Shown: positions 6,590 to 46,207, counted from the stretch's first letter. The stretch: DNA of 64,000 nucleotides from Alphaproteobacteria bacterium (GCA_965262605.1 CBDHFN010000003.1:1105416-1169415); one strand, 5' to 3'. The notes: generated from the sequence alone by a model not told the origin. Numbers and translations are program-made.

Positions 6590-7228
6590 ATGATTAAAAA
6601 ATTGATATTACCCATTGTTTTTTTAGGCTTGCTAAGTGCTTGTGGCACGAAAACAATTAATAAAAACATCACTGACCCGTCTTACACAACAAAATCAACG
6701 GCAACTGATGGGGCAACTTCGGTTGCGCTTGATTATCGTGATTTTGAATTTGCGGCGTCAAAGGCGATTGAATCGTTCTTAAAAAGCCCAGTTTCTACAA
6801 AACCAAATTCCAATCAGCCTTGGGTTATGGCGATAAGTCGCATAAAAAATGACACGACGATAAGTCTTGATACCGACCAATTAGTTAAAAAAATCCGAAT
6901 CGCCTTGCTTAACAGCGGTAAAGTTATAACGACTACGGCGGTTGGCGCGGGCGGTGCCGAAGACGAATTAAGCAAGCAAATTAGGGATTTACAAAAATCA
7001 CAATTATTTGACCAAACCACGGTTGCGAAAAATAATGGTTTAATTGCCCCTGATTTAAGCTTGTCTGGCAAGATTATTCAGCGCACGAATCTGGTTGGTT
7101 CTTCGCAACAAAATGATTATTACATTCAACTTAGCATAACTAACATTAATACGGGTTTGGCTTTTTGGGAATTTGAACAAATTATTTCAAAATTAACCTC
7201 CAAAAACAGCTTTACATGGAATCCATAA
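6590..7228 (+). CDS. LpoB-like (COG3417) outer-membrane lipoprotein
   Basis: Lipobox LLSAC at residues 14-18; C-domain pattern resembling the PBP-activator LpoB fold (D..A..S..L.....V.....ND....L..........R.AL.NSGK). Confidence 0.5.
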   Translation: MIKKLILPIVFLGLLSACGTKTINKNITDPSYTTKSTATDGATSVALDYRDFEFAASKAIESFLKSPVSTKPNSNQPWVMAISRIKNDTTISLDTDQLVKKIRIALLNSGKVITTTAVGAGGAEDELSKQIRDLQKSQLFDQTTVAKNNGLIAPDLSLSGKIIQRTNLVGSSQQNDYYIQLSITNINTGLAFWEFEQIISKLTSKNSFTWNP

Positions 7229-7231
7229 TTT

Positions 7232-8569
7232 ATGTTTAACAAATTATTTTGCGCATTTTTTATATTGATATTATGGTATATAACAAATCAATCTTTTGCC
7301 GCAGAATTAAAAAATAAAATCGTGATTGGTAAGGGCGAAACCCGACAACAAGCAATTTATAATGGTTTATTAAATGCTACCACGCAAATTTATGGCTTGT
7401 CAATTCAACAAATGGGCGAATTAACGCAAAAAAATACGCAAATTTTGTCGTTTGATGCGAATGGCAAGCCGAATATTCACGAAATGACGCAAAATTTAAA
7501 TTCCATTGGCACGATAATTAAATCGCAAACTGGTTTAGCCCCTTCGGCAAATTTAATTGCAAGCTGGAACATTAACGAAGAAAATAGCACTGACAAACAA
7601 GTTGAGTTAAGCGTAAGTTATTACGAATATTCCAAAGCTGACCCGCAAAATATTAAGAATCAAGGTAAAATCAGGCTGGTAATTGCGCCATTAAATACAA
7701 CAGATTCGCAAATTGAAACAGATATAAAATATAATTTTGCTGATTTTATTCACAAGCAATTAACCAATTATCTTATTAAATCCAACCGATTTACAATTTT
7801 GGAACGCAAAGACTTAGATTACGCGAATATTGAGCGAAATTTGATTCAAAGCAATATTGTTGCCAATCAATATCATCAAAACTATGCCCAAGTCATTGGC
7901 GCAAGCTGGATTTTCATTCCCAAAATTGATAAAATTATTTGGAAATCAAGTAAAAAAACTTCGGAAATAAGCGGGGAAGAAACAAAACGGGCGCAGGGAT
8001 TAATGCAATTTAGTTATACCATTATTGATTCGGCATCATATGAAATAATTAAAAGCGATACGATAAAATATGAAGTTCATGTTAAAAATAACCAAGTAAA
8101 CAACGATGATGAATTAATAAATACGACTGATTCGGTGGGTGTTCAAAAATTTATTGGCGAATCGGTGGCGGAATTTGCCAATGAAGTGATTGATGAAATT
8201 TACCCACCCTTAGTGATTAAGGTGAAAAATCAGGGTTTAGTGTTAAACCGCGGGCAAAAATTTACCCAAGTCAACGATGTTTGGGAATTATTCACGCCAT
8301 CTGAAGTGATTATTGACCCACAAACGAACCAAGAATTAGGCAGTGATTTAACCTCCATCGGCATTATGCAGATAAATAATATTTCGGCGAATTACGCTAA
8401 CGGCAAGCTTTTAAGCGGTGAATTGCCCAGCGAAATGCCGACTTATTTTATTGCCAAACGCAAAAAAATACAAGATGAAGATAAAATAAGTGATAATTCT
8501 AAAAATAAAGCAACTGGCACGGGATTGCCGTCATTTCTAACCCGTGATTATTTAAAGACAACGCCATGA
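7232..8569 (+). CDS. hypothetical secreted protein (signal peptide), co-operonic with the LpoB-like gene
   Basis: 445-aa ORF; N-terminal signal ...TNQSFA/AEL; 3-nt gap to the upstream gene and a 4-nt overlap with the downstream gene. Confidence 0.5.
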   Translation: MFNKLFCAFFILILWYITNQSFAAELKNKIVIGKGETRQQAIYNGLLNATTQIYGLSIQQMGELTQKNTQILSFDANGKPNIHEMTQNLNSIGTIIKSQTGLAPSANLIASWNINEENSTDKQVELSVSYYEYSKADPQNIKNQGKIRLVIAPLNTTDSQIETDIKYNFADFIHKQLTNYLIKSNRFTILERKDLDYANIERNLIQSNIVANQYHQNYAQVIGASWIFIPKIDKIIWKSSKKTSEISGEETKRAQGLMQFSYTIIDSASYEIIKSDTIKYEVHVKNNQVNNDDELINTTDSVGVQKFIGESVAEFANEVIDEIYPPLVIKVKNQGLVLNRGQKFTQVNDVWELFTPSEVIIDPQTNQELGSDLTSIGIMQINNISANYANGKLLSGELPSEMPTYFIAKRKKIQDEDKISDNSKNKATGTGLPSFLTRDYLKTTP

Positions 8570-9030
8570 AGCCAAGGATAAGTTTAGTTTTTCTTAGTTT
8601 ATTAGCGATTTTTAGTCAAGCATCGCCCGTTGCAGCGGACCCAAAAAATACAATTCAAGGCGCATTAAAAGGTAGTATTACCGGATTGGTTTTAGGAAAA
8701 ATTTTAGGAAATGGCGATAAAGCCGCCGCGGTGGGGGCGATTGGTGGTGCGCTGGCTGGTGCAGCTTTGGCAACGGGCACTAAGGATACGCCCACGCCAG
8801 CGAAATCAAGTAAGCAACCCGCGCAACCTGCGCAATATTCGGTTTTTGTGCAAAATGATTATACCGCGCCCGCACCTTTTGTTAAAATTGAAAATACCCC
8901 AATTGCGAATGGTAATTTATCGCCGATTAAGGCGCAACAAACCATACCTAAATTTACGAAATGCTTGCGCAATGAAAATAATGGTTATGATTGCCAAACG
9001 CAAAATGGCGATAAATATTTTTTAAAATAA
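8566..9030 (+). CDS. glycine-zipper (17 kDa-antigen-like) outer-membrane lipoprotein family protein
   Basis: Signal peptide, then GxxxGxxxG glycine zipper (GAIGGALAGAALATG), a PAQ-rich linker and a C-terminal Cys pair. Confidence 0.5.
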   Translation: MKPRISLVFLSLLAIFSQASPVAADPKNTIQGALKGSITGLVLGKILGNGDKAAAVGAIGGALAGAALATGTKDTPTPAKSSKQPAQPAQYSVFVQNDYTAPAPFVKIENTPIANGNLSPIKAQQTIPKFTKCLRNENNGYDCQTQNGDKYFLK

Positions 9031-9046
9031 AATTAAGATAATTTTG

Positions 9047-9811
9047 TCACTTAAAGCTTTGGACAAGCGAACCACAAATTAGCACCCAGCCATCAACCAT
9101 CACAAAAAATATTATCTTAAACGGCAAAGAAATGGCGGCGGGTGGTAATAATTGCATGCCCATGGACACTAAAATTGAGGCAATCGCCATATCTATCACT
9201 AAAAAAGGCACAAAAATCAAAAAACCAATTTCAAATGCTCGTTTTACTTCGGAAATCATGAAGGCGGGCAATAAAACCCGCAAAGGCACGGTATCTATGG
9301 TGGTGGCTTTGTCAATATTTGCCAAATTAAGAAAAAGCCCAATCTCTTTTTCGCCGACATTGCGCGACATAAACGCGTGCATGGGTTTAATGGCTCGTTC
9401 CAAGGCAACTTCTTCGGTGATTTTTTGGGCAATTAAAGGGATTACTGCATCATTGTAAATTTTGGTAAAAGTTGGCTCCATCACAAAAAAAGTTAAAAAT
9501 ACCGCCAAGGCAATAATTACCATATTGGGCGGCGCGGTTTGCGTGCCAATGGCTTGACGCAAAAATGAAAGCACAACGACAATGCGCGTAAAGCTTGTCA
9601 TCATCACTAAAATACTGGGCGCAATGGAAAGCACGGTTACCACGACAATTAATTGGAATAACCTTGCGGTTACTGAACCGCCGCCTTGCCCAAAATTAAG
9701 TGATAGGGTTTGCGCCATTATCGGTTCGGCAAATAATGCCAAAATAGCAATGGGTATTATCCAGAAAATCCGATATTTTTTAATCGTATCAATGGTGATT
9801 TTATTTCTCAT
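9047..9811 (-). CDS. fliP: flagellar type III export apparatus protein FliP
   Basis: 254 aa, a signal peptide followed by the conserved FliP TM core (…MGMQLLPP…). Confidence 0.9.
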   Translation of the reverse strand: MRNKITIDTIKKYRIFWIIPIAILALFAEPIMAQTLSLNFGQGGGSVTARLFQLIVVVTVLSIAPSILVMMTSFTRIVVVLSFLRQAIGTQTAPPNMVIIALAVFLTFFVMEPTFTKIYNDAVIPLIAQKITEEVALERAIKPMHAFMSRNVGEKEIGLFLNLANIDKATTIDTVPLRVLLPAFMISEVKRAFEIGFLIFVPFLVIDMAIASILVSMGMQLLPPAAISLPFKIIFFVMVDGWVLICGSLVQSFK

Positions 9812-10139
9812 TTTCTAAGATTTTCTTGAAATTTTTGACGGGTTTTATGGTTTTTTTCTCGTAATTATGGGTTGAAATTGGCATGATTGTGTCGCCTTGA
9901 GGCGATATTAAAATGAAGAATTCTTCGCCTTCTTTGTCAATGACTATTAATTTTCGCTTGGCATCAAGCATAATTTGGTCGGTGATTTGCAATTTTCCAC
10001 TAAATTTATTGCCAAAAAGCGGATTTTTATATTTTTTTAACAATAAACCCATGCCGTAAATAACCGACAAAACTAAGCCTAGCATTAAAAACATATTAAT
10101 ATATGCGGAATAATCCATGATTGTCTCTCTCTTAATCAA
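9801..10139 (-). CDS. fliO: FliO-like small single-TM protein preceding fliP
   Basis: 112 aa, one N-terminal TM helix, 11-nt overlap with the fliP start. Assignment is by position and architecture only. Confidence 0.5.
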   Translation of the reverse strand: MIKRETIMDYSAYINMFLMLGLVLSVIYGMGLLLKKYKNPLFGNKFSGKLQITDQIMLDAKRKLIVIDKEGEEFFILISPQGDTIMPISTHNYEKKTIKPVKNFKKILENEK

Positions 10140-10219
10140 GCAATACCAATTTTGTATTGCAGTGCGCCCGATTAGTCAAGTAAAAAATTTTAATGTTATA
10201 AATTAACGCGGCGATTTTA

Positions 10220-10405
10220 TTATCGGTATTTTTTAAGCATTTTTTCAATGCTTGGCGCGATTTTCGGCGATTCGCCCAATTGGACTTGGGAATTATAAAA
10301 ATCTGGGTCGTTTTTCATTTTTTGTTCATATGCAATATATGATGGCGATTTTGAAAAATTATCGCGCAAATTTTCATGAATTTTTTTTAATATTTTTAAA
10401 ATCAT
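10220..10405 (-). CDS. hypothetical small basic protein (61 aa)
   Basis: ORF overlaps the stop of the upstream 281-aa gene by 4 nt; no recognisable family. Confidence 0.3.
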   Translation of the reverse strand: MILKILKKIHENLRDNFSKSPSYIAYEQKMKNDPDFYNSQVQLGESPKIAPSIEKMLKKYR

Positions 10406-11247
10406 GGGTTATCCTTTGTATTATTATTTTTGTATATTTTTTCAAAAGCGGTTTTAAAAAAATCTGGGTTTTGTGGAAAATTAGCTTCTGTGTATAAATA
10501 ATATGGCGGATATAATTCCCAAGCTTGAATTTCTGATAATTTAATGACTAGTAAACCTGAATTTACGCCTAAACCATTGTTGCCAAAAAATTTATCATTA
10601 AATAAATCATATAGTTTTTGTGCATCCTTGCTAGTTTTTTTCAATTCAAGATTTGTTTTATCGGCTTCAACTAAAAGATTCTCAATATCTTGATTTGATA
10701 CTATTCCGCCTTCAATCAATATCAAAGTCTGATATTTAATGTTATATTCTGCTAACGCTCCTGTATAAGCTTGATTATCATGATTTTTAAGTTTTATTTT
10801 TAAAAAGGGTAATTTGCGATATGGTGCATTTTTAATTAAATTTATTAAATATTTTTCTTCAATAGTCATTTTTTGCGATGGCAATAAATTATCCCAAATA
10901 TTCATTTTAGTAAAAAACAACATATAAATCAAATAAATGAATATTATAATTAATGGCGCGCCAAACAAATGGGTGAATGTTAACAATATAAAATTAAAGT
11001 TAAAATGAATATCATTATGGCTTAATATTAATTTGTAAATTTCTTTAAATGTCGTAATATCAAAAACTATGACAAAAAACATTATTAAAATATGAATAAA
11101 TACGGAATATACAATTGAATAAATTAGAAATTCATTTAATTCACGATTAAACCAAGACCTTATATATCTGGTAGCACGAAAAGTTATAAAACCCGGCACC
11201 GACAATAAAATTAATAAAAGCATTGTATTGGACGAAAATATTGGCAT
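10402..11247 (-). CDS. hypothetical membrane protein (4 TM plus soluble C-domain), very AT-rich
   Basis: 281 aa, hydrophobic N-half, K/N/I/Y-rich composition; first gene of the ...-fliO-fliP unit. Confidence 0.5.
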   Translation of the reverse strand: MPIFSSNTMLLLILLSVPGFITFRATRYIRSWFNRELNEFLIYSIVYSVFIHILIMFFVIVFDITTFKEIYKLILSHNDIHFNFNFILLTFTHLFGAPLIIIFIYLIYMLFFTKMNIWDNLLPSQKMTIEEKYLINLIKNAPYRKLPFLKIKLKNHDNQAYTGALAEYNIKYQTLILIEGGIVSNQDIENLLVEADKTNLELKKTSKDAQKLYDLFNDKFFGNNGLGVNSGLLVIKLSEIQAWELYPPYYLYTEANFPQNPDFFKTAFEKIYKNNNTKDNP

Positions 11248-11634
11248 AATTATATTATAACAAAAAACTGCGAAAATTGCAAGCGAATTGAATGTGGATA
11301 TTATCCAATTTTAAAATAAACTTTCTTCGTAAAAAGATTTAAAAGCAATTTAGGTAAACGATTCTGCATGCTTATTACTTTGTAGGCAACGGAATAATAG
11401 AGTTTTAAACCAAGCCATTAAATAATCTACGCGACACAAAGCAACTCACCAAGTTCCATGGTTTCAAGGGTGCTGTTAAGAATTATTTTTGCCCCCGCAA
11501 AAGGTTCGCACCAGACGGAATTATAGGCTTGATGGTCAAAATTGCGCAGTAATTCAACCCAATGTTTAAATGGTTCAAGCATAAAGCAATTTTGTTTGGT
11601 ATAAAATTGCCCAAGTTCAATTTTTTCCATAATT

Positions 11635-13191
11635 TCACCAAGTGCTTTGATTTTTAAGAATAATGGGTAATTCATTGGCGATTCGCTGGGTGACAATATC
11701 CCAATTATCCGTGATTTTATCTTGGCGAAATAATTTTAATGAATGATAAAATGGGCTTCTGTTTGAAGTTCCCCAACGCCAATCAGACGAATGACAAACG
11801 GCAATTAAACCCGGCTTGCCAAGCGCGCCCGCAATATGCCCGTTAATATTCGCAATGGACACAACCGCATCCATTGCGTCAATCATTGCGGTTAAGCCAT
11901 CAACATTTTCCCAAATATCAATTTCTTTGATACTATATAAAGTTAAACCTAATTCTTTTTGAATTTCAACGACTTCTTTGTTATTCATCAAATATTGCAC
12001 CGCAATTGGCACGCCCCCCGCATCATAAACAAGCTTGATTAAATCGCGAAGCGACATGTTGCGCCGATAAGCATTAGGTCCAATAGTAGACCAGCTTAAC
12101 CCAACCAAAGGCTTACCGCCACTGGCTTTAAGCATTGCATCGCGAATCGCATTTTTAAGCACAGGGTCTGATTTTAACCATGCTTTGCGTGGGTATATGA
12201 CATTATGCGGGGCTTGGCGCATTAAATCACCCATGGGAACATGGTGCAGGATATTTCGTTCTTTGAGCCAGCTGGCTGGGGGCATGGAATTAAGAACTTC
12301 AATTTGTGGGTAAGTGCGCTTGAAAATTGGTGCCATTTTTAAGCTTGGGGCTAGATAAAGGGGGGTTTTTGCTTTTAGCAATCGGTCAAGATGCGAACAG
12401 AAAATAATCTCATCGCCCAAACCTTGTTCGCGCCAAACAATAAGGGGAGGGCGCGCCTCGTCTGGTTCGTCTTGCGGATACCAATATGCAATATCTTCGT
12501 AAAAATCGGGCGGAGTTTCATGAAAATCAGGGGAACGCCATCGGCATGTATATTGCGCCCAACCTAAATCAAAATCACCACGAAACAAATGCAACATGGA
12601 CATATTGCCCAAAGTACGCCCTTCAAAGGGATTTAATGCCAAAGCCCGCGCGTAAGTTTTTTCAGAATCATCATACCGCAAAAAATCACGATATAATAAC
12701 CCCAAATTGCAACAAGTTGAAAAGCTGTTCGGACCAAATTTTAAGGCATTTTCATAGGCAACTAAGGCTTCGTCATACATTAAATTATTGCGTAATGATA
12801 ACGCATAATGAAACCAAATATCAGGATTCGTGGGAAATCGTTCTACGGCGATTTTGCCCACGGTGATGGCTTCTGATTCTTTTTTATTTTCCCGCAAAAC
12901 ATGAATATAAAACATCAACATTTCAATGGTCATGTTTTGCAACGGCATGAAATTTGACATTACTTCCAATGCTTTTTTTGACTCTTTCTTCGTCATATAT
13001 AATTGCGCAAGATTAGTGCGCGTGGCGTGCGAATCAAATCGCCGTTTTAAAATATCTTCGTATACTGCTTGGGCTTCTTCAAATTTATTTTCCATATGAA
13101 ACCGCACACCGCGTTCATGGTCCTTTACCACATCAGGTGGTATAGGATACGAAGTTGCTGCTTGTAATTTTTTTTCGGTTTTTCCATACAT
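11635..13191 (-). CDS. TPR-repeat plus GT9-like (heptosyltransferase-fold) glycosyltransferase
   Basis: N-terminal TPR repeats; C-half with a G-L-G-D motif (WREQGLGDEIIF) and a GT-B C-lobe pattern (NINGHIAGALGKPGLIAV). Confidence 0.6.
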   Translation of the reverse strand: MYGKTEKKLQAATSYPIPPDVVKDHERGVRFHMENKFEEAQAVYEDILKRRFDSHATRTNLAQLYMTKKESKKALEVMSNFMPLQNMTIEMLMFYIHVLRENKKESEAITVGKIAVERFPTNPDIWFHYALSLRNNLMYDEALVAYENALKFGPNSFSTCCNLGLLYRDFLRYDDSEKTYARALALNPFEGRTLGNMSMLHLFRGDFDLGWAQYTCRWRSPDFHETPPDFYEDIAYWYPQDEPDEARPPLIVWREQGLGDEIIFCSHLDRLLKAKTPLYLAPSLKMAPIFKRTYPQIEVLNSMPPASWLKERNILHHVPMGDLMRQAPHNVIYPRKAWLKSDPVLKNAIRDAMLKASGGKPLVGLSWSTIGPNAYRRNMSLRDLIKLVYDAGGVPIAVQYLMNNKEVVEIQKELGLTLYSIKEIDIWENVDGLTAMIDAMDAVVSIANINGHIAGALGKPGLIAVCHSSDWRWGTSNRSPFYHSLKLFRQDKITDNWDIVTQRIANELPIILKNQSTW

Positions 13192-13256
13192 AATATCAGA
13201 TTAATTTCATAATTCGCAATAAGTGTCAATAGTATTAATAAAATTTACTTTAAATA

Positions 13257-14423
13257 TTATGTTCTTTGAATCGTATAATTGCTTCTGAACGGCAACATGG
13301 TAATATTATCGGCAAATTTGTCAGAAATGTTATTTTGGCAATCTTGATATTGAGGTTTTGATTGAATTGCAAGATGCCAAAAATGTTGAGCAAGAATATC
13401 ATTGCCTTGCCATTGCTTGGCAATCGCGTAGTTATTGTATAAAGCAGCATCAATTTCGTTAGTTAATATCATGTTAAGTTTTTCATTGGCTAAAATCGGC
13501 AATCCCAAATTCAAGTAATTAACACCCATCGCGAAATGCGATAAATAAAATAAATCGCGCTGATAGCCTTGATGCACAAGCTTATCAATATCAGGTATTT
13601 TAGATAATTCATGCAAAATTTCGTTTGATTCGTGAAAATACCCGCAAAACTGCTTAAATGAACTTAAAATCCATAATTGCATCGGTTTAGGAATCATTGA
13701 TTGGCTTAATGTGTTTTTAACTTTATCAAAAGGTAATAATCGGTAATTATGGGTTAAATTACGCTTAATTAACGGAAATTTTGATGAAATTGAGCCGGGT
13801 TGATTGCGATATTCGTATAAAAAATCATCGCAATATGAAATTTTTGCATGATTTAAAATTGCTTGCAATTTAAAAAAATAATCCTCGCCAGAAAGAGAAT
13901 AGGGTGAAAATGGATATTTTCTGGCAAATTCCGTATTAAATCCATGGCAAATGGCGGTCGGTTGCCAATGGCGTTCAAATTCAAAATAAATACCATGGGG
14001 TTGTTTTATAAAATCCGCAATTTTAAAAGCCGAAATTGATTGATTGGCAATATCATTAATGGTAAAATTAGGGTAAATTAAATCGCATTCTTGTTCGGCA
14101 AAGATTTGCAAATAAGTTTCAGCCGCATGGGCGGGTAAAATATCATCACTATCAAGCCACATACCATATTTAGTTTGAATTTGATTAATCGCATATTGCC
14201 GCAAATGCCCCAATGAAACCCGTGTTGGAATTTTTTCAATGGTGCAATTGTGAAAATTACAATCGCGCACGATTTTCAATGTATCATCGGAACTTTGGTC
14301 GTCAATGATTAATATTTTTGCGACATTATTAGCAAAAGCCGATAATATGCTTTCTTTGATGGTTTTTTCGGCATTGCGCGCCACCATACATATCGTCATA
14401 TCATGGTGAATATTTTTCGTCAT
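13257..14423 (-). CDS. family-2 glycosyltransferase with C-terminal extension
   Basis: GT2 N-domain (ICMVARNAEKTI...ILIIDDQSSDDT...DSDD) followed by about 150 aa of helical repeat-like sequence. Confidence 0.7.
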   Translation of the reverse strand: MTKNIHHDMTICMVARNAEKTIKESILSAFANNVAKILIIDDQSSDDTLKIVRDCNFHNCTIEKIPTRVSLGHLRQYAINQIQTKYGMWLDSDDILPAHAAETYLQIFAEQECDLIYPNFTINDIANQSISAFKIADFIKQPHGIYFEFERHWQPTAICHGFNTEFARKYPFSPYSLSGEDYFFKLQAILNHAKISYCDDFLYEYRNQPGSISSKFPLIKRNLTHNYRLLPFDKVKNTLSQSMIPKPMQLWILSSFKQFCGYFHESNEILHELSKIPDIDKLVHQGYQRDLFYLSHFAMGVNYLNLGLPILANEKLNMILTNEIDAALYNNYAIAKQWQGNDILAQHFWHLAIQSKPQYQDCQNNISDKFADNITMLPFRSNYTIQRT

Positions 14424-16504
14424 TCTTTCAAATGCACAAACATGGCGGTAATATCATCGCTTTGGTCGTGTCCATTTACAAATTCTTCAATGGCGTGCAT
14501 CATAAAATTCATATTTTCGGCAACACCTTTGTTAAAATCAGTATTGTTTAGCACATTAAGCACGCGCGCTTCCCCAAATAATTCTTCGTTTTTGTTAAAT
14601 GCCTCGGTTACCCCATCAGTGAATAAGAATAATCGGTCGCCTTTATTAAATGGAATAGTAATTTGGCTATATTCAATGTCTGGCATGATAGCCGTCACTA
14701 AGTCACCCGTTGATTGCAAAAATTCAATATCCTTGCCGTTATTGCGGATAATTGCAGGCGGGTTATGCCCGGCATTACAATATTCAAATGTGCCATTTTT
14801 AAAATCTATAATGCCATAAAATAAGGTGACAAAAAAGTTATCTTGGTTATTCGCGGCTAATAAATTGTTGGATTTTTGCACGGTTTCTGCGGCAGTCGCG
14901 CAATTTTGCGCAAAAACTTGCAGCACGGTTTTAGAAACCATCATAAATAATGCCGATGGCACACCTTTGTCCGAGACATCGCCAACTAAGAATCCTAGGC
15001 GATTATCATCAATCATAAAATAATCATAAAAATCACCACCCACGGCTTTTGAAGGCTTTAACAGAGCTTGTAATTCAATTTTTTCATGGTTAAAGCTTGC
15101 GGCAGGAACATAAGAGAGCTGCACTCTTCTTGCTATATCAAGCTCCTTTTGTATAGCCATAAATCGCGTTTGCGTGGCAAGTGCCTCTTTTAATTCGTCA
15201 ATCACTTCATTTAATTTTGATTGTTTTGATATTAAGCTTGTGCCTAATTTGCGCAAAGTCAAAGCAAGCGAGCCAAGTTCGTTGTTTTTTTGATGGTCAT
15301 CAGGCGAATTAATGTTTTTTTCGTTTAAGTTATGAAAATGAAAACTTAACTCCATTTTATCAGTTTGGTCTAAAACATCGCTTAGCTTGAAAATTTCTTC
15401 CTTAATAATTTTTTCGGTTCTTAATCGTTGCTTGACGCGCGAACGGCGCACTAACCAAAGATCTAAAAGCTGCTCACGCAGAATTTCAATGGCATTAAGC
15501 ATTTTATTAATTTCTGGAGTTTTAATATTACTGGTAATAACATGCGACGCATCGCCCCTTGAAAGATTTTCCAATACATTTGTGCAAATTTCCAAAGGTT
15601 GCAATGATTTATACATAATATATCGGACAAACCAAAGGCATAAAAACATAATTAAGATAAAACTACCAGCATATGTATATTGCAAATATAAAATGTCTTT
15701 GCTATTTTCAGTAGTGTCTTTTAATAAAACTAAATATGTTTTTTGATTGTTAAATACCTTGTCCATGGGAATTGTCGTGGCTGTATAAGTATAATTGCCG
15801 TCTTTTAGGTCAATCAATCGGTGGTCGTTGTCAATTATAATGGAATTGGCAATGTTTTTCCATACTTGCGTATCAATGCCTTCAATAATTCCACCATTGC
15901 GATTAACAATATAAACATGAGATTGCGTTTGATTCGCCAGCAATTCCAAAATGCTAACGACTGATTCCGCAATAACACCAACCCCAACAACTTCATAATT
16001 TTTTTCATTAATTATGGGAAATATATAAGTTAAAAATAAATGGCGGTTTTCATTATAGCCAAAACCATATTCCGCGCTTTTTTGATTGAGAACTTTTTCA
16101 ATTAATTTCTCGCTTACCGGGCTTATCGGGTTAAGATTGGACGAAGAACGATATTCAATTTTTCGTTCCAAATTAAAAATTTCAATGAATTTCTTGCCAT
16201 GGTTCAAATCATTTTCTAATATAGATTTAGAAAATAATTCATTGATTTTTATGCTTTTATTGGTATCAGTATCATTGGTTAGAATTTTAGCAACTTCTTT
16301 ACCTAATTTATTAATAATTTGAATGTTAGCGTCAAGCTTGTTATTGGTAATTCTTCGCCATATTTGATTTTTATCCGAAACTATAGTTTCAGTGAATTTA
16401 TTTTTAAATAAATTTTCTTGGTAATTAAACATCAGATGATTTGCACCACTAAGGCTTATAATCATGAACATAAATACGATAGTGATTTTATTCGTAATGG
16501 TCAT
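14420..16504 (-). CDS. membrane sensor with periplasmic domain, HAMP and C-terminal PP2C (SpoIIE/RsbU-type) serine phosphatase
   Basis: Two TM helices flank a roughly 250-aa periplasmic domain; HAMP-like segment; C-terminal PPM motifs (GDFYDY...VGDVSDKGVPSALFM...FTDGVTEA...DDIT). Confidence 0.75.
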   Translation of the reverse strand: MTITNKITIVFMFMIISLSGANHLMFNYQENLFKNKFTETIVSDKNQIWRRITNNKLDANIQIINKLGKEVAKILTNDTDTNKSIKINELFSKSILENDLNHGKKFIEIFNLERKIEYRSSSNLNPISPVSEKLIEKVLNQKSAEYGFGYNENRHLFLTYIFPIINEKNYEVVGVGVIAESVVSILELLANQTQSHVYIVNRNGGIIEGIDTQVWKNIANSIIIDNDHRLIDLKDGNYTYTATTIPMDKVFNNQKTYLVLLKDTTENSKDILYLQYTYAGSFILIMFLCLWFVRYIMYKSLQPLEICTNVLENLSRGDASHVITSNIKTPEINKMLNAIEILREQLLDLWLVRRSRVKQRLRTEKIIKEEIFKLSDVLDQTDKMELSFHFHNLNEKNINSPDDHQKNNELGSLALTLRKLGTSLISKQSKLNEVIDELKEALATQTRFMAIQKELDIARRVQLSYVPAASFNHEKIELQALLKPSKAVGGDFYDYFMIDDNRLGFLVGDVSDKGVPSALFMMVSKTVLQVFAQNCATAAETVQKSNNLLAANNQDNFFVTLFYGIIDFKNGTFEYCNAGHNPPAIIRNNGKDIEFLQSTGDLVTAIMPDIEYSQITIPFNKGDRLFLFTDGVTEAFNKNEELFGEARVLNVLNNTDFNKGVAENMNFMMHAIEEFVNGHDQSDDITAMFVHLKE

Positions 16505-17514
16505 GGCAAATATCCAACTATCTTAAATTGCTTTAATTGCGTGTATGAAGGATATTCATTCAATGCTTTAACAGCTTTAATATTTAGGGTGGCGAAATAT
16601 TCACTTGGGTTATAAAATTTAATGCTTTGGGGCGGGATTTGCCGAAATAAAATATCTTCGGTAAGTTTGCCCGCCGATTTACCAATACCCGTTAAATTGG
16701 AAACAATGCCAAATAAAGCTTTGCCTTCAAGCAACGGCGTTTCATAGGTGCTGAATACTGGAATTTTTTGTAATGTCGCAAAATGTGTAAATTTTGCTTG
16801 ATTATCAATGATGAATTTATCGGTGCCTAAATAAATTACATCAACATTATTTATTTTTAACTCCTCAAAAATTTGCTCCATTGAAAATAAAGATGGTTTG
16901 CCGTTAATGTCTTGCCCAATTTTTGCCTCATGAAAATTAATATTTTGTTGCCGAAGTTTTGTGATTAATTCGGTTTTATTAAAAACTGAAATAGGGTCAT
17001 TGGGGTTATAAACTACGCCGACTTTGGTAAATTTTTTAAAATCAAATAAACTGCTTAATTGCAAATCAATGGGGGCAAAATTGCTAATTCCAACGATGTT
17101 TCGTTCGGAACTTAAATATGACGCAATAATGCCATACTCCACCGAATAAGGTAAATTTACAAAAATACCGGGAATATTGGTGATAAATTTGTCCGATTGA
17201 TTTTTGTAATCACTAATTGTGCCAAAAATTAATTTAGTCGCCTCCGCACCATTTGTATAAACAAAATCAGGGTTTAAAGATTTGATAATATTAACTAAAT
17301 TTGATGGGTTTTGTTGATAATCTCTTAACGAATATTGCGTAATTTTAGTCGCAATTCTTCGTAAATTTAAGTAATTTTCAAATCCCTTTTCAATATGCGT
17401 GGGTAAGTCTGGAATGACTTGGACGATGATAAATGGATCGTTAATATCGCCTTTTTTTGCCCAAGATAAATTAGGCAAATATACTAACGCAAGAATTAAT
17501 ATAAATTTAAACAT
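16501..17514 (-). CDS. periplasmic binding protein of the ABC_sub_bind/COG2984 family (no cognate permease or ATPase adjacent)
   Basis: Signal peptide MFKFILILALVYLPNLSWA; two-lobed binding-protein pattern. Confidence 0.55.
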   Translation of the reverse strand: MFKFILILALVYLPNLSWAKKGDINDPFIIVQVIPDLPTHIEKGFENYLNLRRIATKITQYSLRDYQQNPSNLVNIIKSLNPDFVYTNGAEATKLIFGTISDYKNQSDKFITNIPGIFVNLPYSVEYGIIASYLSSERNIVGISNFAPIDLQLSSLFDFKKFTKVGVVYNPNDPISVFNKTELITKLRQQNINFHEAKIGQDINGKPSLFSMEQIFEELKINNVDVIYLGTDKFIIDNQAKFTHFATLQKIPVFSTYETPLLEGKALFGIVSNLTGIGKSAGKLTEDILFRQIPPQSIKFYNPSEYFATLNIKAVKALNEYPSYTQLKQFKIVGYLP

Positions 17515-19582
17515 GAGCCACCTTGAAATGCCGATTGGTAAATAATAACCAAATTATCATCATACTTAAACAAATTAATAGGGTAATTAAGAAATTATTA
17601 ATTGTTGCAAAATCATAAAACAGCCCGCTTATTAAAACACAAATGATGGACATGCTATAAAAAGTTTTGGATTTTATGATGACGCATGCTTGGATTTTTT
17701 CTGGATTATCTTTGCATATTTTCATGATGGTTTTATTAAAATCATTGCTTAAAATCGTATAGCTTACGCCCCATAAAAATACAGCATAATAAATATACGA
17801 ATTGTGAAATAAAATTAAAATAATACCAATCATAATTGCCAAAATGCCGATAATAAATCGGTTGGCGTTTTGCAATTTATTCCATGAATTTAAATTTTGT
17901 ATATTTTTGAAACAAGCAAATCCTAAGGCGTATAAGCAAAAACATAAACCGATTTGCGTAAAACTTTGGCTGGTTTTGAATAAATATAACGGCATAAAAA
18001 ACAACATTAATGAATAGCTTATCATCTTAATAGGCATTTCTACGCTTAACAACATAGAATAAATTTGGAATTTTTCATATTTGCTTAAAATATTTTTGGT
18101 GCGCAAAAATATGTTGATATTATTGATTTTGATGGTTGGCAAATCAATAAAAATTAAATAAATAATTGCAAATAAAAATATTCCGCTCATAATAATAAAA
18201 ACACTATTCATGGATATATTATCGGCAATAATTCCCCCCAATAATGGCGAAATAGAAAATGCCATAATAATGTATTTTTTATATGAAAAATTATGGTTAT
18301 ATGGATTAATTTCTGAATTATTAATATATTGCATTATTGTTGAAATAATGATTCCAAAGCTTAAACCCATAAAAACTCTAATCAAGATAATATAAAATAA
18401 ATTATTTGCATAATAAAGAATTACACAAGAAGCAAGCAAGGCGAACAAGGAGCATATTAATATAGATTTTGGCGAATATCGCGCATATAAAATTTGCGTG
18501 TATTGTTGCCCAATAGTTTTCATGATTATGAAACCGATAAACATGATTGCGATTGCGCTGCCTTCATGAATTTGCCAATTTAATTGGCTGGGATTAATTA
18601 TAAATGTTGGCAATATACCAGCCATTAAACCAAAACCTGCAAAAATTAAAAACAATGGAATAATGAAAGTTTCTAATGAAAATAATTTTTCGGGTATTTC
18701 ATGACCAAGCTTGCTTGTTTTAATTTTTTCATTCATCTCGTCAAGTAAATTTGTTAAGGCAATACCCTTTTCGGGATCAATTTGCGATTCAACCGCTTCG
18801 TTAGTTTCTTGAATTATATCAATAAAATATTCATTCTTGTTTTTAACAAATTGATTAATTTGCTGGCTAAATTTACCAATTTCATCGGTTTGATTAATAA
18901 ATAAATATCGCGAATAATTGCCATTTTTTAATCGTTCAATAAAATTCAAAATAAACGAGATATTATTAATAATTTTGGAATTAATTGCCCAAAATGTAAA
19001 GCAAACTGAAAGCCACACGCTGATGAATATAATAAAAATTAACTCAAAACCTATTTGTTCTAAAATATAACTGAAAAAATTATCTTTTAAATAAATTTTA
19101 ACTTCGCCTTCTTTATTTTCGGTGGAATAATAATCAAAAACAAAATTTGGTTTATTTTGAAAATTAAATTGTTCGTTTTTTTGCACGAATTGTTTGATGA
19201 TTTCATCGTCAGCATTCGTGATGGCGATGGCATAAAATGTTGGATTTTTTGCAAAATAATTGATGATTTCTTGGTCAAATCCCTTGATTTTACTGATGTC
19301 AAGCCCGTAATAAGCATATTTTGATATATCATTGGAGATAGCAACCCCAGTAATTTGGGCATTATTTTTGATGGTTGTTTCAATTTGATTGACCACAATT
19401 GTGTATGAAAATAAAAAAACAAGAAATATTAACAGCGTGCAAATTACGGCTAATAAAATCTTGATTTTTTTATATGCGATTGCCAATATATCCCGTGACT
19501 TATCGTCTTTTAAAAAATCAATATCATTTTTGGCAAGCGGTAATAAATTTAAGCCATTTAAAAAAGCATGGAATTTTATCAT
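17507..19582 (-). CDS. membrane protein: sensor-like N-terminus (TM-periplasmic-TM-HAMP) fused to a roughly 12-TM MFS-like transporter domain
   Basis: 691 aa; HAMP-like helix pair after the second TM; C-terminal 400 aa of repeated TM helices with MFS-like loops. Confidence 0.5.
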   Translation of the reverse strand: MIKFHAFLNGLNLLPLAKNDIDFLKDDKSRDILAIAYKKIKILLAVICTLLIFLVFLFSYTIVVNQIETTIKNNAQITGVAISNDISKYAYYGLDISKIKGFDQEIINYFAKNPTFYAIAITNADDEIIKQFVQKNEQFNFQNKPNFVFDYYSTENKEGEVKIYLKDNFFSYILEQIGFELIFIIFISVWLSVCFTFWAINSKIINNISFILNFIERLKNGNYSRYLFINQTDEIGKFSQQINQFVKNKNEYFIDIIQETNEAVESQIDPEKGIALTNLLDEMNEKIKTSKLGHEIPEKLFSLETFIIPLFLIFAGFGLMAGILPTFIINPSQLNWQIHEGSAIAIMFIGFIIMKTIGQQYTQILYARYSPKSILICSLFALLASCVILYYANNLFYIILIRVFMGLSFGIIISTIMQYINNSEINPYNHNFSYKKYIIMAFSISPLLGGIIADNISMNSVFIIMSGIFLFAIIYLIFIDLPTIKINNINIFLRTKNILSKYEKFQIYSMLLSVEMPIKMISYSLMLFFMPLYLFKTSQSFTQIGLCFCLYALGFACFKNIQNLNSWNKLQNANRFIIGILAIMIGIILILFHNSYIYYAVFLWGVSYTILSNDFNKTIMKICKDNPEKIQACVIIKSKTFYSMSIICVLISGLFYDFATINNFLITLLICLSMMIIWLLFTNRHFKVAHV

Positions 19583-20349
19583 GATGAATTATCCGCAAAA
19601 TCTATGGCAAGCATTTTGTTGCGCCTATCCTTCATAAAAATTTCATGCGCCTCAAGTTTTTTATTAGTTTCTTCGTTAAATTCATGATATTCGCGGTTTA
19701 ATTTTTTATTATTGAGCAAATAAAAGCTGTTCGCCTGTTTGTTAATGCGTTGGATAGCGCCCGCAAAAAAATTATTGGAAAAATAAAAACTTAACATCAC
19801 AATAAAGATGATGATAATCATAAGAAAGATCGTTATTTTGTAAGTAATTTCCATAATTTTACCATTGTAAATATTTTGCGGATAAGACGCAAGAAGCACA
19901 CCAGCAAAATTCCCAGTATCGTCCTTTAATGTAATGCCAACATAATTCGTTGTATTGTTAGAAAATTTTGGAGTAATTTCATATTTAATTTTTGCAAGCC
20001 ATTCTTCTGGAATTTTTTCATTGATAAATGAAGTGTCGGTTGAATATATTGTGATTCCTTCGTTATTGATAATATCTATAGTTTGCACATCAACTAATTG
20101 CACTGATAAAGCATCAATCATATTGGCGATATTCGGGGTTTTATCCAATGATCCACCCGTGTTAAGCCATATTTGAAAATTATTATGGATTGATGATAAA
20201 TATACTAAATAATTTTCTTCAACGAATTTTTGTTCTAATTTTTCGTATTTTTTGGTCAAAACAACACCATAAATCATTAACCCAAAAATTAATGGCAAAG
20301 CAATAATAATTGCGATTTTATGGCTTATTTTATCAAAAATTTTATTCAT
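19579..20349 (-). CDS. membrane sensor-like protein lacking an output domain (TM, 150-aa periplasmic domain, TM, short coiled-coil tail)
   Basis: 256 aa, topology inferred from hydrophobic segments; first gene of the four-gene unit. Confidence 0.45.
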   Translation of the reverse strand: MNKIFDKISHKIAIIIALPLIFGLMIYGVVLTKKYEKLEQKFVEENYLVYLSSIHNNFQIWLNTGGSLDKTPNIANMIDALSVQLVDVQTIDIINNEGITIYSTDTSFINEKIPEEWLAKIKYEITPKFSNNTTNYVGITLKDDTGNFAGVLLASYPQNIYNGKIMEITYKITIFLMIIIIFIVMLSFYFSNNFFAGAIQRINKQANSFYLLNNKKLNREYHEFNEETNKKLEAHEIFMKDRRNKMLAIDFADNSS

Positions 20350-45070: not shown

Positions 45071-46207
45071 ATGAACCAAAAATCATTAGACGAATATTTA
45101 AGATTAGGGCAGATTTATTATGCCAAAGGGCATTATTTTGAAGCTTTAAACGAATTTGAAGGGGCATATCGCATCAACCCCGAAGATTGCGAAATTTTGG
45201 AATGGCGCGGGGAAATTGCGATAAGGCTTGATGATTATGACACTGCTGCGCAAGTATTAACCATGGCGCGCGATAATTTTTCGGAAAAATTTAATGATTG
45301 GTCGCAATTGGGTTTGGCTTTATATGAGTGCAGGCGCGCAACCGAAGCGGTATCGGCACTTACCCGTGCGATTGAACGGGACACCAATGATATTATTGCC
45401 CATGCAAATTTAGGGCGGGCATTGTATGAAATGTTTTTGAGCGAAGATAAAGACGAAGCCATCACTATCGCCAAAAAATGGATGCGGCAATTTCCCGAAA
45501 ATCCCGATGCTAAACATATGGGGGCGGCGATTGCGAACGAAGCATTACCTGATAGGGCGAATCCAGAATTTATTGGCGGGTTATTTGACGATTTTGCCGA
45601 AAATTTTGATTATAGCCTGTCGCAACTTGGCTATCAAGTGCCCAAGAAATTAATTAATCTTTTGCATCATCATATTAACCCAAAATCTGAAGGCTTAAAA
45701 ATTCTAGATTTAGGGTGCGGGACGGGGGCTTTGGGCGCAGAATTTGTTAAGCAATTTCCATTAAAGATTGATAAATTAATCGGCATTGACTTGTCGTATA
45801 AAATGCTGAACAAAGCCGAAAATCATGGAATTTATACGCAATTAATCCGCACGGATATAGTTGATTATTTAAATATTGAAAATCAATCATTTGATTTAAT
45901 TTTGGCGGGCGATGTTTTATGTTATTTTGGCTTATTGGATAATATTATGCCTGCGATTAAATACGCCCTGAAACCTTCGGGATTATTGGCTTTTTCTTTG
46001 GAATTATTGCCCCCAGCGGTTGGCATGTATCAATTACATGCTTCGGGACGATATAGGCATCAAGAAAATTATATTAATGCCTTGATGATTGCCCATAATA
46101 TGCCCCAAATTACCGAAGAAAAATGTATTTTGCGGTATGAATATCAACAACCAGTAAATGGTGTGGTGAAATTATGGCAAAAAACACAAATGGGGTTTAA
46201 TGTCTGA
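45071..46207 (+). CDS. TPR-repeat SAM-dependent methyltransferase (COG4976-like)
   Basis: N-terminal TPRs and a class-I MTase motif (ILDLGCGTG). Confidence 0.7.
   Translation: MNQKSLDEYLRLGQIYYAKGHYFEALNEFEGAYRINPEDCEILEWRGEIAIRLDDYDTAAQVLTMARDNFSEKFNDWSQLGLALYECRRATEAVSALTRAIERDTNDIIAHANLGRALYEMFLSEDKDEAITIAKKWMRQFPENPDAKHMGAAIANEALPDRANPEFIGGLFDDFAENFDYSLSQLGYQVPKKLINLLHHHINPKSEGLKILDLGCGTGALGAEFVKQFPLKIDKLIGIDLSYKMLNKAENHGIYTQLIRTDIVDYLNIENQSFDLILAGDVLCYFGLLDNIMPAIKYALKPSGLLAFSLELLPPAVGMYQLHASGRYRHQENYINALMIAHNMPQITEEKCILRYEYQQPVNGVVKLWQKTQMGFNV

Follow-up and report, generated by a model that had tools for sequence, protein, structure and literature searches.

A divergent FlmG-family protein beside fliO-fliP in an alphaproteobacterial genome: most likely separate units on a shared strand

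We analysed a 64,000-nt stretch of DNA from Alphaproteobacteria bacterium GCA_965262605.1 (CBDHFN010000003.1:1105416-1169415), the whole of which is called the window here. On its minus strand, the flagellar export genes fliO and fliP (together fliOP) lie near two glycosyltransferase genes. One of them encodes a 518-aa protein that combines tetratricopeptide repeats (TPR) with a GT-B glycosyltransferase domain, referred to as TPR-GT, and the other encodes a GT2 glycosyltransferase. A preliminary description of the interval 9047-14423 had interpreted it as a possible flagellin glycosylation island. Our results favour another interpretation, to which we assign a probability of about 0.65: independent units make up the interval like a mosaic and happen to share a strand. 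fliOP and the glycosyltransferase genes are most likely separate units joined by genome rearrangement, and most likely they do not constitute a flagellin glycosylation island. The TPR-GT protein adds a new and divergent member to a known family; next to its gene lie a fliOP unit of the ordinary kind and a small islet of variable content.

Results

Gene order in the window and in close relatives

Only two close relatives were found in the searched collections, and a metagenome scan added none. The first, GCA_013572995.1, encodes a TPR-GT protein 81% identical to that of the window on contig L001 and fliOP on contig L088. The second, L003, encodes a TPR-GT protein with 95% identity. In GCA_013572995.1, fliO-fliP stand alone on their own contig, flanked by a divergent NifU-like gene on one side and a convergent phasin gene on the other. 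The TPR-GT gene is on the different contig, between a divergent hldE-hldD pair and cmk. This pair (160-2510 of L001), which lies upstream of the TPR-GT ortholog, consists of hldD (TIGR02197, 316 bits, above the cut-off) and an hldE-like gene (NF008454, 1.7e-128). No flagellin gene and no gene for CMP (cytidine monophosphate)-linked pseudaminic or legionaminic acid (Pse/Leg) was found around this ortholog. When the DNA of this genome was compared with that of the window, only the coding sequences of fliP and TPR-GT aligned. The adjacency of fliOP and TPR-GT is not conserved. L003 keeps the order PP2C - GT2 - TPR-GT.

Pfam scans of all open reading frames (ORFs) of at least 100 aa in the 64-kb window detected neither flagellin nor Pse/Leg genes, and fliOP were the sole flagellar genes. 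Probing the same 64 kb by tblastn for flagellin, NeuB/LegI and LegC gave no matches.

Relationship of the TPR-GT protein to FlmG

In Caulobacter crescentus and Brevundimonas subvibrioides, flagellin is O-glycosylated by FlmG (Ardissone et al. 2020, PMC7591256; Kint et al. 2022, bioRxiv 10.1101/2022.03.25.485807), whose TPR domain binds flagellin (PMC7591256). As the FlmG query, we used the synthetic flmG Cc-Bs chimera (602 aa when translated; supplement of bioRxiv 10.1101/2022.03.25.485807). In this chimera, the TPR domain comes from C. crescentus and the GT-B domain from B. subvibrioides, each of which has been characterised experimentally (bioRxiv 10.1101/2022.03.25.485807). In BLASTP, the TPR-GT protein aligned with the chimera colinearly from end to end (24% identity, 521 columns, E 6e-13). 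A hidden Markov model (HMM) of the family catalytic domain, built without the window clade, scored 179 bits with the window protein and 150 bits with FlmG. The FlmG-like architecture proposed in the preliminary description is thus borne out by an alignment that covers both domains. We assign the TPR-GT protein and FlmG to one family, with real homology beyond the shared architecture, and class the FlmG catalytic domain itself as GT9-like within this family. It had been suggested that clustering with lipopolysaccharide (LPS) heptosyltransferases or with flagellin glycosyltransferases would decide the role of the protein. As the FlmG catalytic domain appears to be GT9-like itself, this dichotomy is false, and the test cannot discriminate. 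No NCBIfam model recognises FlmG; TPR models alone match it.

The TPR-GT9-like family is represented by 652 matches listed among the candidates scored in a database search, and by at least 599 stretches in a pattern scan of species-representative genomes. Its hosts include Rhodospirillales, Burkholderiales, Planctomycetota and other groups. Our family sample comprised 80 fetched loci with 143 members, and 146 sequences were used for the tree and the motif comparison. A flagellin gene was present within 10 kb in three of the 80 loci, and the family is common outside flagellar contexts. Tandem arrays of 5-6 TPR-GT9-like paralogs in about 20 kb were observed in L014, L022, L023, L035, L042 and L062.

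Within the family, the window protein and FlmG are distant from each other. The glycosyltransferase domain of the window protein shares 22.6% identity with that of FlmG, which is below its median identity to the 142 members (25.1%; best, 32%) and ranks 19th from the bottom among these 142 values. The nearest neighbours of FlmG itself are at 37-38% identity. In a neighbour-joining tree, FlmG was located in an 18-member clade, with its closest branch-mates from L070 and L027, and the window protein was placed elsewhere. In 60 of 60 bootstraps, the smallest group containing both the window clade and the FlmG core (FlmG, two sequences of L070 and one of L027) included at least 44 of the 146 taxa. 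The FlmG clade has members from L026, L027, L029, L031, L039, L045, L059, L070, L071, L076, L080 and L082, plus FlmG(Bs). The neighbourhoods of L020, L033 and L086, which contain the nearest distant neighbours of the window protein, held nothing informative.

The clade is also marked by a motif signature, which was derived in the present analysis. The GT9-type His of motif VDTSVAHLAGALG is replaced in all 18 members, mostly by Glu and in FlmG by Asn, and the clade reads [AP][PA]T instead of VDT. Sequences that lack the His number 22 among the 146, 18 of them in the FlmG clade. The window protein and both of its orthologs keep the His (SIANINGH[IL]AGALGKP). From its position in the tree, the identity ranks and the motif, we class the TPR-GT protein as a paralog-level relative of FlmG that lies outside the FlmG clade, not as a FlmG ortholog.

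A NeuB-type nonulosonic acid synthase was found in exactly two of the 80 loci, L070 and L027, both of which have members in the FlmG clade. The region 2672-17403 of L070, from a proteobacterial metagenome-assembled genome, contains a NeuB-like synthase together with ORFs for sugar modification, two divergent TPR-GTs, a flagellin of 673 aa, and flaG-like and fliD-like genes. Judged by gene content, L070 is a complete, textbook flagellin glycosylation island.

Domain structure of the TPR-GT protein

The TPR-GT gene is located at 11635-13191 on the minus strand. The TPR domain, presumed to be the acceptor-binding module, covers residues ~19-219 (12535-13137) and gave several Pfam TPR matches (TPR_1, TPR_2 and related models). 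The putative GT9-like GT-B catalytic domain covers residues ~230-514 (11650-12504) and contains the EQGLGD motif and SIANINGHIAGALGKP. An AlphaFold2 model based on a 49-sequence alignment had a predicted local distance difference test (pLDDT) score of 89.8 and no membrane segment. In this model, 13 paired helices form a TPR solenoid (19-219), and the GT-B domain behind it (250-513) is Rossmann-like with two lobes. In a Foldseek search with the full-length model, the top matches were only other TPR + GT-B enzymes (SPINDLY and OGT), with a low TM-score. In a fold comparison of the catalytic domain, the nearest solved structures were GT9 enzymes. PF01075 matched 13 of 18 aligned family catalytic domains (best E-value, 7.6e-8) and did not match the window domain even at E <= 1. 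These data uphold the earlier wording "TPR plus GT9-like", and with high confidence the 518-aa protein is predicted to consist of a TPR domain at the N-terminus and, at the C-terminus, a GT9-like GT-B domain.

When the catalytic-domain profile was compared with the PDB sequences, WaaF was the best match, over the xxxHxAAAL motif (E 0.053). In this alignment, the Asp of the WaaF NDSGxxH motif is located five residues before the His, and the window TPR-GT has Ala at this position (SIANINGH). The matching Asp in WaaC is needed for catalysis.

The ratio of nonsynonymous to synonymous substitution rates (dN/dS) of the TPR-GT gene was 0.04, indicating strong purifying selection. The C-terminus (...ILKNQSTW) is identical in the 95% ortholog, the 81% ortholog extends four residues further, and the alignment with 48 family members reaches the C-terminal end. 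The N-terminus (MYGK.EKKLQAA) is common to the window protein and the 81% ortholog. The first ~27 residues of the 95% ortholog (L003, 2582-2690) are wholly unlike those of the other two, which agree with each other. This mismatch is probably due to an indel error and not to biology, because the name of the contig includes "2x", which may mean low coverage.

A second TPR fusion is encoded elsewhere in the window (45071-46207). This 378-aa protein has an N-terminal TPR domain and a class I S-adenosylmethionine (SAM)-dependent methyltransferase domain.

The fliO-fliP unit

From 20349 down to 9047, the minus strand carries an uninterrupted series of co-oriented ORFs. Every ORF named in the preliminary description is present on this strand, and its account of gene content and coordinates can be retained. 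fliP and GT2 score above the family cut-offs, and fliO is supported. fliP (9047-9811) encodes the flagellar type III export pore protein of 254 aa. Its scores with TIGR01103 (279.4 bits; cut-off, 217.45) and PF00813 (252 bits, 4.6e-75) make this assignment certain. FliP is 84% identical to its ortholog in L088, and the dN/dS of 0.075 indicates purifying selection; thus, fliP is not a relic. The nearest FliP sequences are otherwise alphaproteobacterial, with 60-65% identity.

The putative fliO gene (9801-10118, minus strand, 105 aa) scores under the curated cut-offs of TIGR03500 (33 bits against 55; 4e-8) and PF04347 (16.5 against 22; 0.009). It overlaps the start of fliP by 11 nt, and its small size and N-terminal hydrophobic segment fit FliO. 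The gene in the fliO position of L088, itself a weak PF04347 match, has 51% identity to it. The mechanical ORF starts at the TTG at 10139; since the L088 alignment begins at residue 8 (MDYSAY), we place the true start at the ATG at 10118. These features support the assignment of this ORF as fliO.

A convergent gene ends 17 bp past the fliP stop codon, and therefore fliQ, fliR and flhB do not come after fliP. The preliminary description had regarded this as an operon organised differently from the enteric one. The absence of the three genes downstream of fliP is confirmed. However, in Oleispirillum naphthae (L091) and a metagenomic relative (L092), fliP also closes a short operon with no fliQ, fliR or flhB downstream, and in Oleispirillum these genes form a separate divergent operon. 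As fliP is operon-terminal in both alphaproteobacterial relatives checked, the departure from the enteric order is not unusual here.

In a consensus scan that overall was not enriched over shuffles, a sigma-70-like site (TTGAAA-18-GATAAT, 10/12) was detected upstream of fliO at 10219-10248 on the minus strand; it may be the promoter of a separate fliOP unit. L088 has a perfect TTAA-N7-TTAA (CtrA-box-like) at 9590-9610, about 40 nt upstream of the fliO ATG, and the window has TTAA-N9-TTAA at a comparable place (10190-10215); both are in AT-rich sequence.

On the plus strand, a trio of genes (6590-9030) converges on fliP, encoding LpoB, a 445-aa protein weakly matching CsgG and a glycine-zipper protein. 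LpoB matched TIGR02722 above the cut-off. LpoB is mostly a topic of work on Gammaproteobacteria, whereas the FliP of the window is of the alphaproteobacterial type.

The strain-variable islet

The region between TPR-GT and fliOP is an islet of about 1.5 kb (10220-11634), which starts directly after the TPR-GT stop codon. Its G+C content is 25-30%; values of 25-26% compare with 36% for the window. The DNA homology with L003 ends at position 11633 of the window, and the next gene in L003 (4178-5608) encodes a type IIG restriction-methylase (PADLOC, 4.5e-62). Because L003 carries different cargo here, the site after the TPR-GT stop codon is a strain-variable slot, that is, a hot spot for strain-specific genes.

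The core of the islet is an orphan ORF for a 281-aa membrane protein (10402-11247, minus strand) with hydrophobic N-terminal segments and 25% G+C. It had been described as an AT-rich membrane protein of no known family, and we agree: DUF6338 (PF19865) matched only its N-terminal 58 residues, with 16.9 bits against a cut-off of 26.5, and only two distant homologs were found among 1.84 billion representatives. A 61-aa orphan ORF (10220-10405, minus strand) follows, with a 4-bp ATGA overlap with the stop codon of the 281-aa ORF, and searches of Pfam, NCBIfam, PADLOC and PHROGs assigned it to no family. The ATG of the 281-aa ORF is preceded, at a distance of 6 nt, by the end of the best sigma-70-like site in this region (TTGCAA-17-TATAAT plus an extended TG, 11254-11282, minus strand), a consensus match only (10/12), so the transcript of this ORF may be leaderless. 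We considered whether the islet is a known defence or phage element, and rejected this, as there was no PADLOC, PHROGs or plasmid match and no convincing flanking repeats. Rfam and tRNA scans of the interval gave no matches.

A short ORF (11427-11696, minus strand) overlaps the end of the TPR-GT gene. Its in-frame ATG at 11630, which is 4 nt past the TPR-GT stop codon (11635-11637), would give a product of 67 aa. The suggestion that this ORF is a frameshifted C-terminus of the TPR-GT protein was ruled out, because the protein is full length and ends in the same way as the 95% ortholog. No significant similarity to the short ORF was found in Pfam, NCBIfam, PADLOC, PHROGs, plasmid tblastn or BLASTP against the type IIG enzyme of L003. 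A resemblance to an N6-adenine methyltransferase remnant (GQFYT...EPFAG) had no statistical support and was dropped.

GT2 and its predicted upstream operon

The lineage-specific GT2 gene (13257-14423, minus strand, 388 aa) matches PF00535 with 53.4 bits (cut-off, 23.3), and the alignment shows no variation in its DSDD motif. Among 5.8 billion proteins, the 74% ortholog in L003 was the only genuine homolog. The dN/dS of GT2 was 0.17, approximately four times that of its neighbours (TPR-GT, 0.04; phosphatase, 0.045). An AlphaFold2 model based on a 3-sequence alignment had a pLDDT of 47, which was too poor for a fold search.

The start of GT2 overlaps the stop codon of a PP2C phosphatase gene by 4 bp, and overlaps of 4-8 bp run through three more upstream genes. 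This arrangement assigns GT2 to the PP2C operon, with predicted translational coupling. The upstream genes, none of which is flagellar, encode a SpoIIE/PP2C phosphatase in the membrane (14420-16504, 694 aa), a PF04392 substrate-binding protein (16501-17514), an MFS-like protein (17507-19582, 691 aa) and a 256-aa protein without an assigned function (19579-20349), all on the minus strand. The five-gene series (13257-20349) is an odd combination.

Discussion

Interpretation of the interval

We propose the following model for the interval. fliO-fliP would be an autonomous pair of genes for the export gate of the flagellum, and the 1.5-kb AT-rich islet upstream of it, which differs between strains, would carry orphan genes. 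GT2 would be part of a separate, translationally coupled operon with the PP2C phosphatase. The 518-aa gene would encode a cytoplasmic glycosyltransferase, whose mechanism can be drawn by analogy with FlmG. The TPR superhelix would dock a protein substrate, and the GT-B domain would move a sugar from a nucleotide-sugar to the docked protein, with the Asp of EQGLGD standing where GT9 enzymes have their catalytic base. We consider it most likely that the 518-aa product is soluble and glycosylates proteins, with the acceptor selected by its TPR domain. The data show which genes are present, the fold, that TPR-GT is homologous to FlmG yet falls outside its clade, that synteny is not conserved, that the islet varies between strains and that purifying selection acts; the protein-directed activity, the catalytic residue and the separate transcription of the units are what we infer.

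Several findings weigh against a mosaic of independent units. In the lineage of the window, TPR-GT is only 1.5 kb from fliO, and the genome is small (1.72 Mb; the contig with the window has 1,718,193 bp) and may hold just one member of the TPR-GT family. The family does include flagellin glycosyltransferases. Furthermore, in the Burkholderiales loci L064 and L067, members that keep the His adjoin flagellin genes, so that a place outside the FlmG clade is compatible with flagellin as the target. The tree is a distance tree at ~25% identity, and no more than 5 of 60 bootstraps reproduced the precise four-member FlmG group; for this reason we relied on the 18-member clade together with the motif signature and the ranking by identity. 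Separate transcription units rest on consensus matches that are not enriched over shuffles.

One alternative is the flagellin glycosylation island of the preliminary description, in which TPR-GT, possibly together with GT2, would O-glycosylate flagellin in the cytoplasm, and the proximity to fliOP would reflect a shared function or regulation. The FlmG architecture and demonstrable FlmG homology of TPR-GT are consistent with it, as are the flagellin-linked family members in L064, L067 and L070 and the low dN/dS (0.04) of TPR-GT in a small genome that keeps an intact fliP. However, the proposed island was not supported by the comparison with relatives and with the family. Flagellin and Pse/Leg genes are absent from the 64 kb, and synteny is broken, as the linkage is missing in the 81% relative. 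The TPR-GT protein is placed outside the FlmG clade and lacks the motif signature of the clade, and the variable islet with its own promoter-like site intervenes between TPR-GT and fliO. In addition, fliO and fliP are export-gate genes, unlike the flagellin or chaperone genes found with the family members of L064 and L070, and GT2 has no conserved orthologs and is probably coupled to the PP2C operon. We consider the island improbable, and the same holds for flagellin as the acceptor of TPR-GT, with a slightly better chance.

Another possibility, unlikely as well and yet the foremost among the alternatives, is that TPR-GT is a protein heptosyltransferase dependent on adenosine diphosphate (ADP)-heptose. 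Its GT9-like domain would use ADP-L-glycero-D-manno-heptose, like WaaC/WaaF and the autotransporter heptosyltransferases, and the TPR domain would pick the protein, flagellin or other. The 81% ortholog divergently adjoins hldE and hldD, the closest solved folds are GT9 enzymes, and the best sequence-profile match in the PDB is WaaF. Against this, the hldE/hldD adjacency occurs in one genome only and was found neither in the window nor beside family members in any of the 80 distant loci; the Asp position of the WaaF NDSGxxH motif is Ala; and the window domain does not match PF01075 even at E = 1. ADP-heptose as the donor is only a lead from synteny in one relative. A more specific and somewhat more doubtful form of this idea is a TPR-guided branch of the FlmG superfamily that O-heptosylates a cytoplasmic protein, maybe flagellin before export, with ADP-heptose supplied by hldE/hldD such as those beside its ortholog. 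We know of no description of this donor and acceptor pairing for the TPR-GT9-like family. Least probable, and very unlikely in our view, is an envelope glycan enzyme with a lipid-linked or LPS-core acceptor, in which the TPR domain would serve complex assembly only, perhaps with GT2. The GT9-like catalytic fold, the adjacent GT2 gene in two strains and the ADP-heptose genes beside the ortholog in one relative would fit this role, but the model has no membrane segment, the GT2 partner is not conserved, and the characterised family member FlmG acts on a protein via its TPR domain (PMC7591256).

Significance

The interpretation as a mosaic of independent units corrects the annotation of the interval: adjacency in a rearranged small genome had suggested a functional island that relatives do not support. 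It also draws attention to the TPR-GT9-like family, which is very large and includes paralogs arrayed in tandem, and whose annotation goes no further than "tetratricopeptide repeat protein". The FlmG clade, some of its members being linked to NeuB and flagellin genes, appears to be marked by loss of the His together with [AP][PA]T. This signature may be a marker of flagellin transferases that use CMP-nonulosonates, and could help separate likely Pse/Leg flagellin transferases from other paralogs. For one branch that retains the His, hldE/hldD beside the ortholog provides a testable donor hypothesis.

Comparison with known systems

The fliOP unit resembles the operon ends of L091 and L092 in that fliO overlaps fliP, fliP is last, and fliQ, fliR and flhB are elsewhere. 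It differs from them upstream. There, the first genes of the operon encode a small FlhB-like protein (Bac_export_2) and a product of 90-99 aa; both are absent upstream of fliO in the window and in L088.

The TPR-GT protein shares with FlmG a TPR domain at the N-terminus plus a C-terminal GT-B domain, the EQG[LI][GA]DE motif, and a number of positions at which Trp, Arg, Gln or Asp is invariant. The FlmG type is characterised by a flagellin-binding TPR domain and by modification that depends on Pse or Leg. In contrast, the window TPR-GT has no linkage to flagellin, flaF/flbT or Pse/Leg genes within the 64 kb. It is also shorter (518 aa compared with 596 aa) and lacks the ~85-aa N-terminal extension.

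Compared with the GT9 LPS heptosyltransferases (WaaC/WaaF, PF01075; PDB 1psw and 3tov), the window protein has an additional N-terminal TPR domain of 200 residues. Its identity to them is ~10-16%, it has no PF01075 match of its own, and it has Ala in place of the WaaF NDSG Asp. To our knowledge, canonical LPS heptosyltransferases have no TPR domain. The GT41 O-GlcNAc and O-fucose transferases (OGT, SPINDLY and bacterial OGT homologs) are similar to the proposed arrangement in this respect, as their TPR superhelix offers a protein substrate to the GT-B domain.

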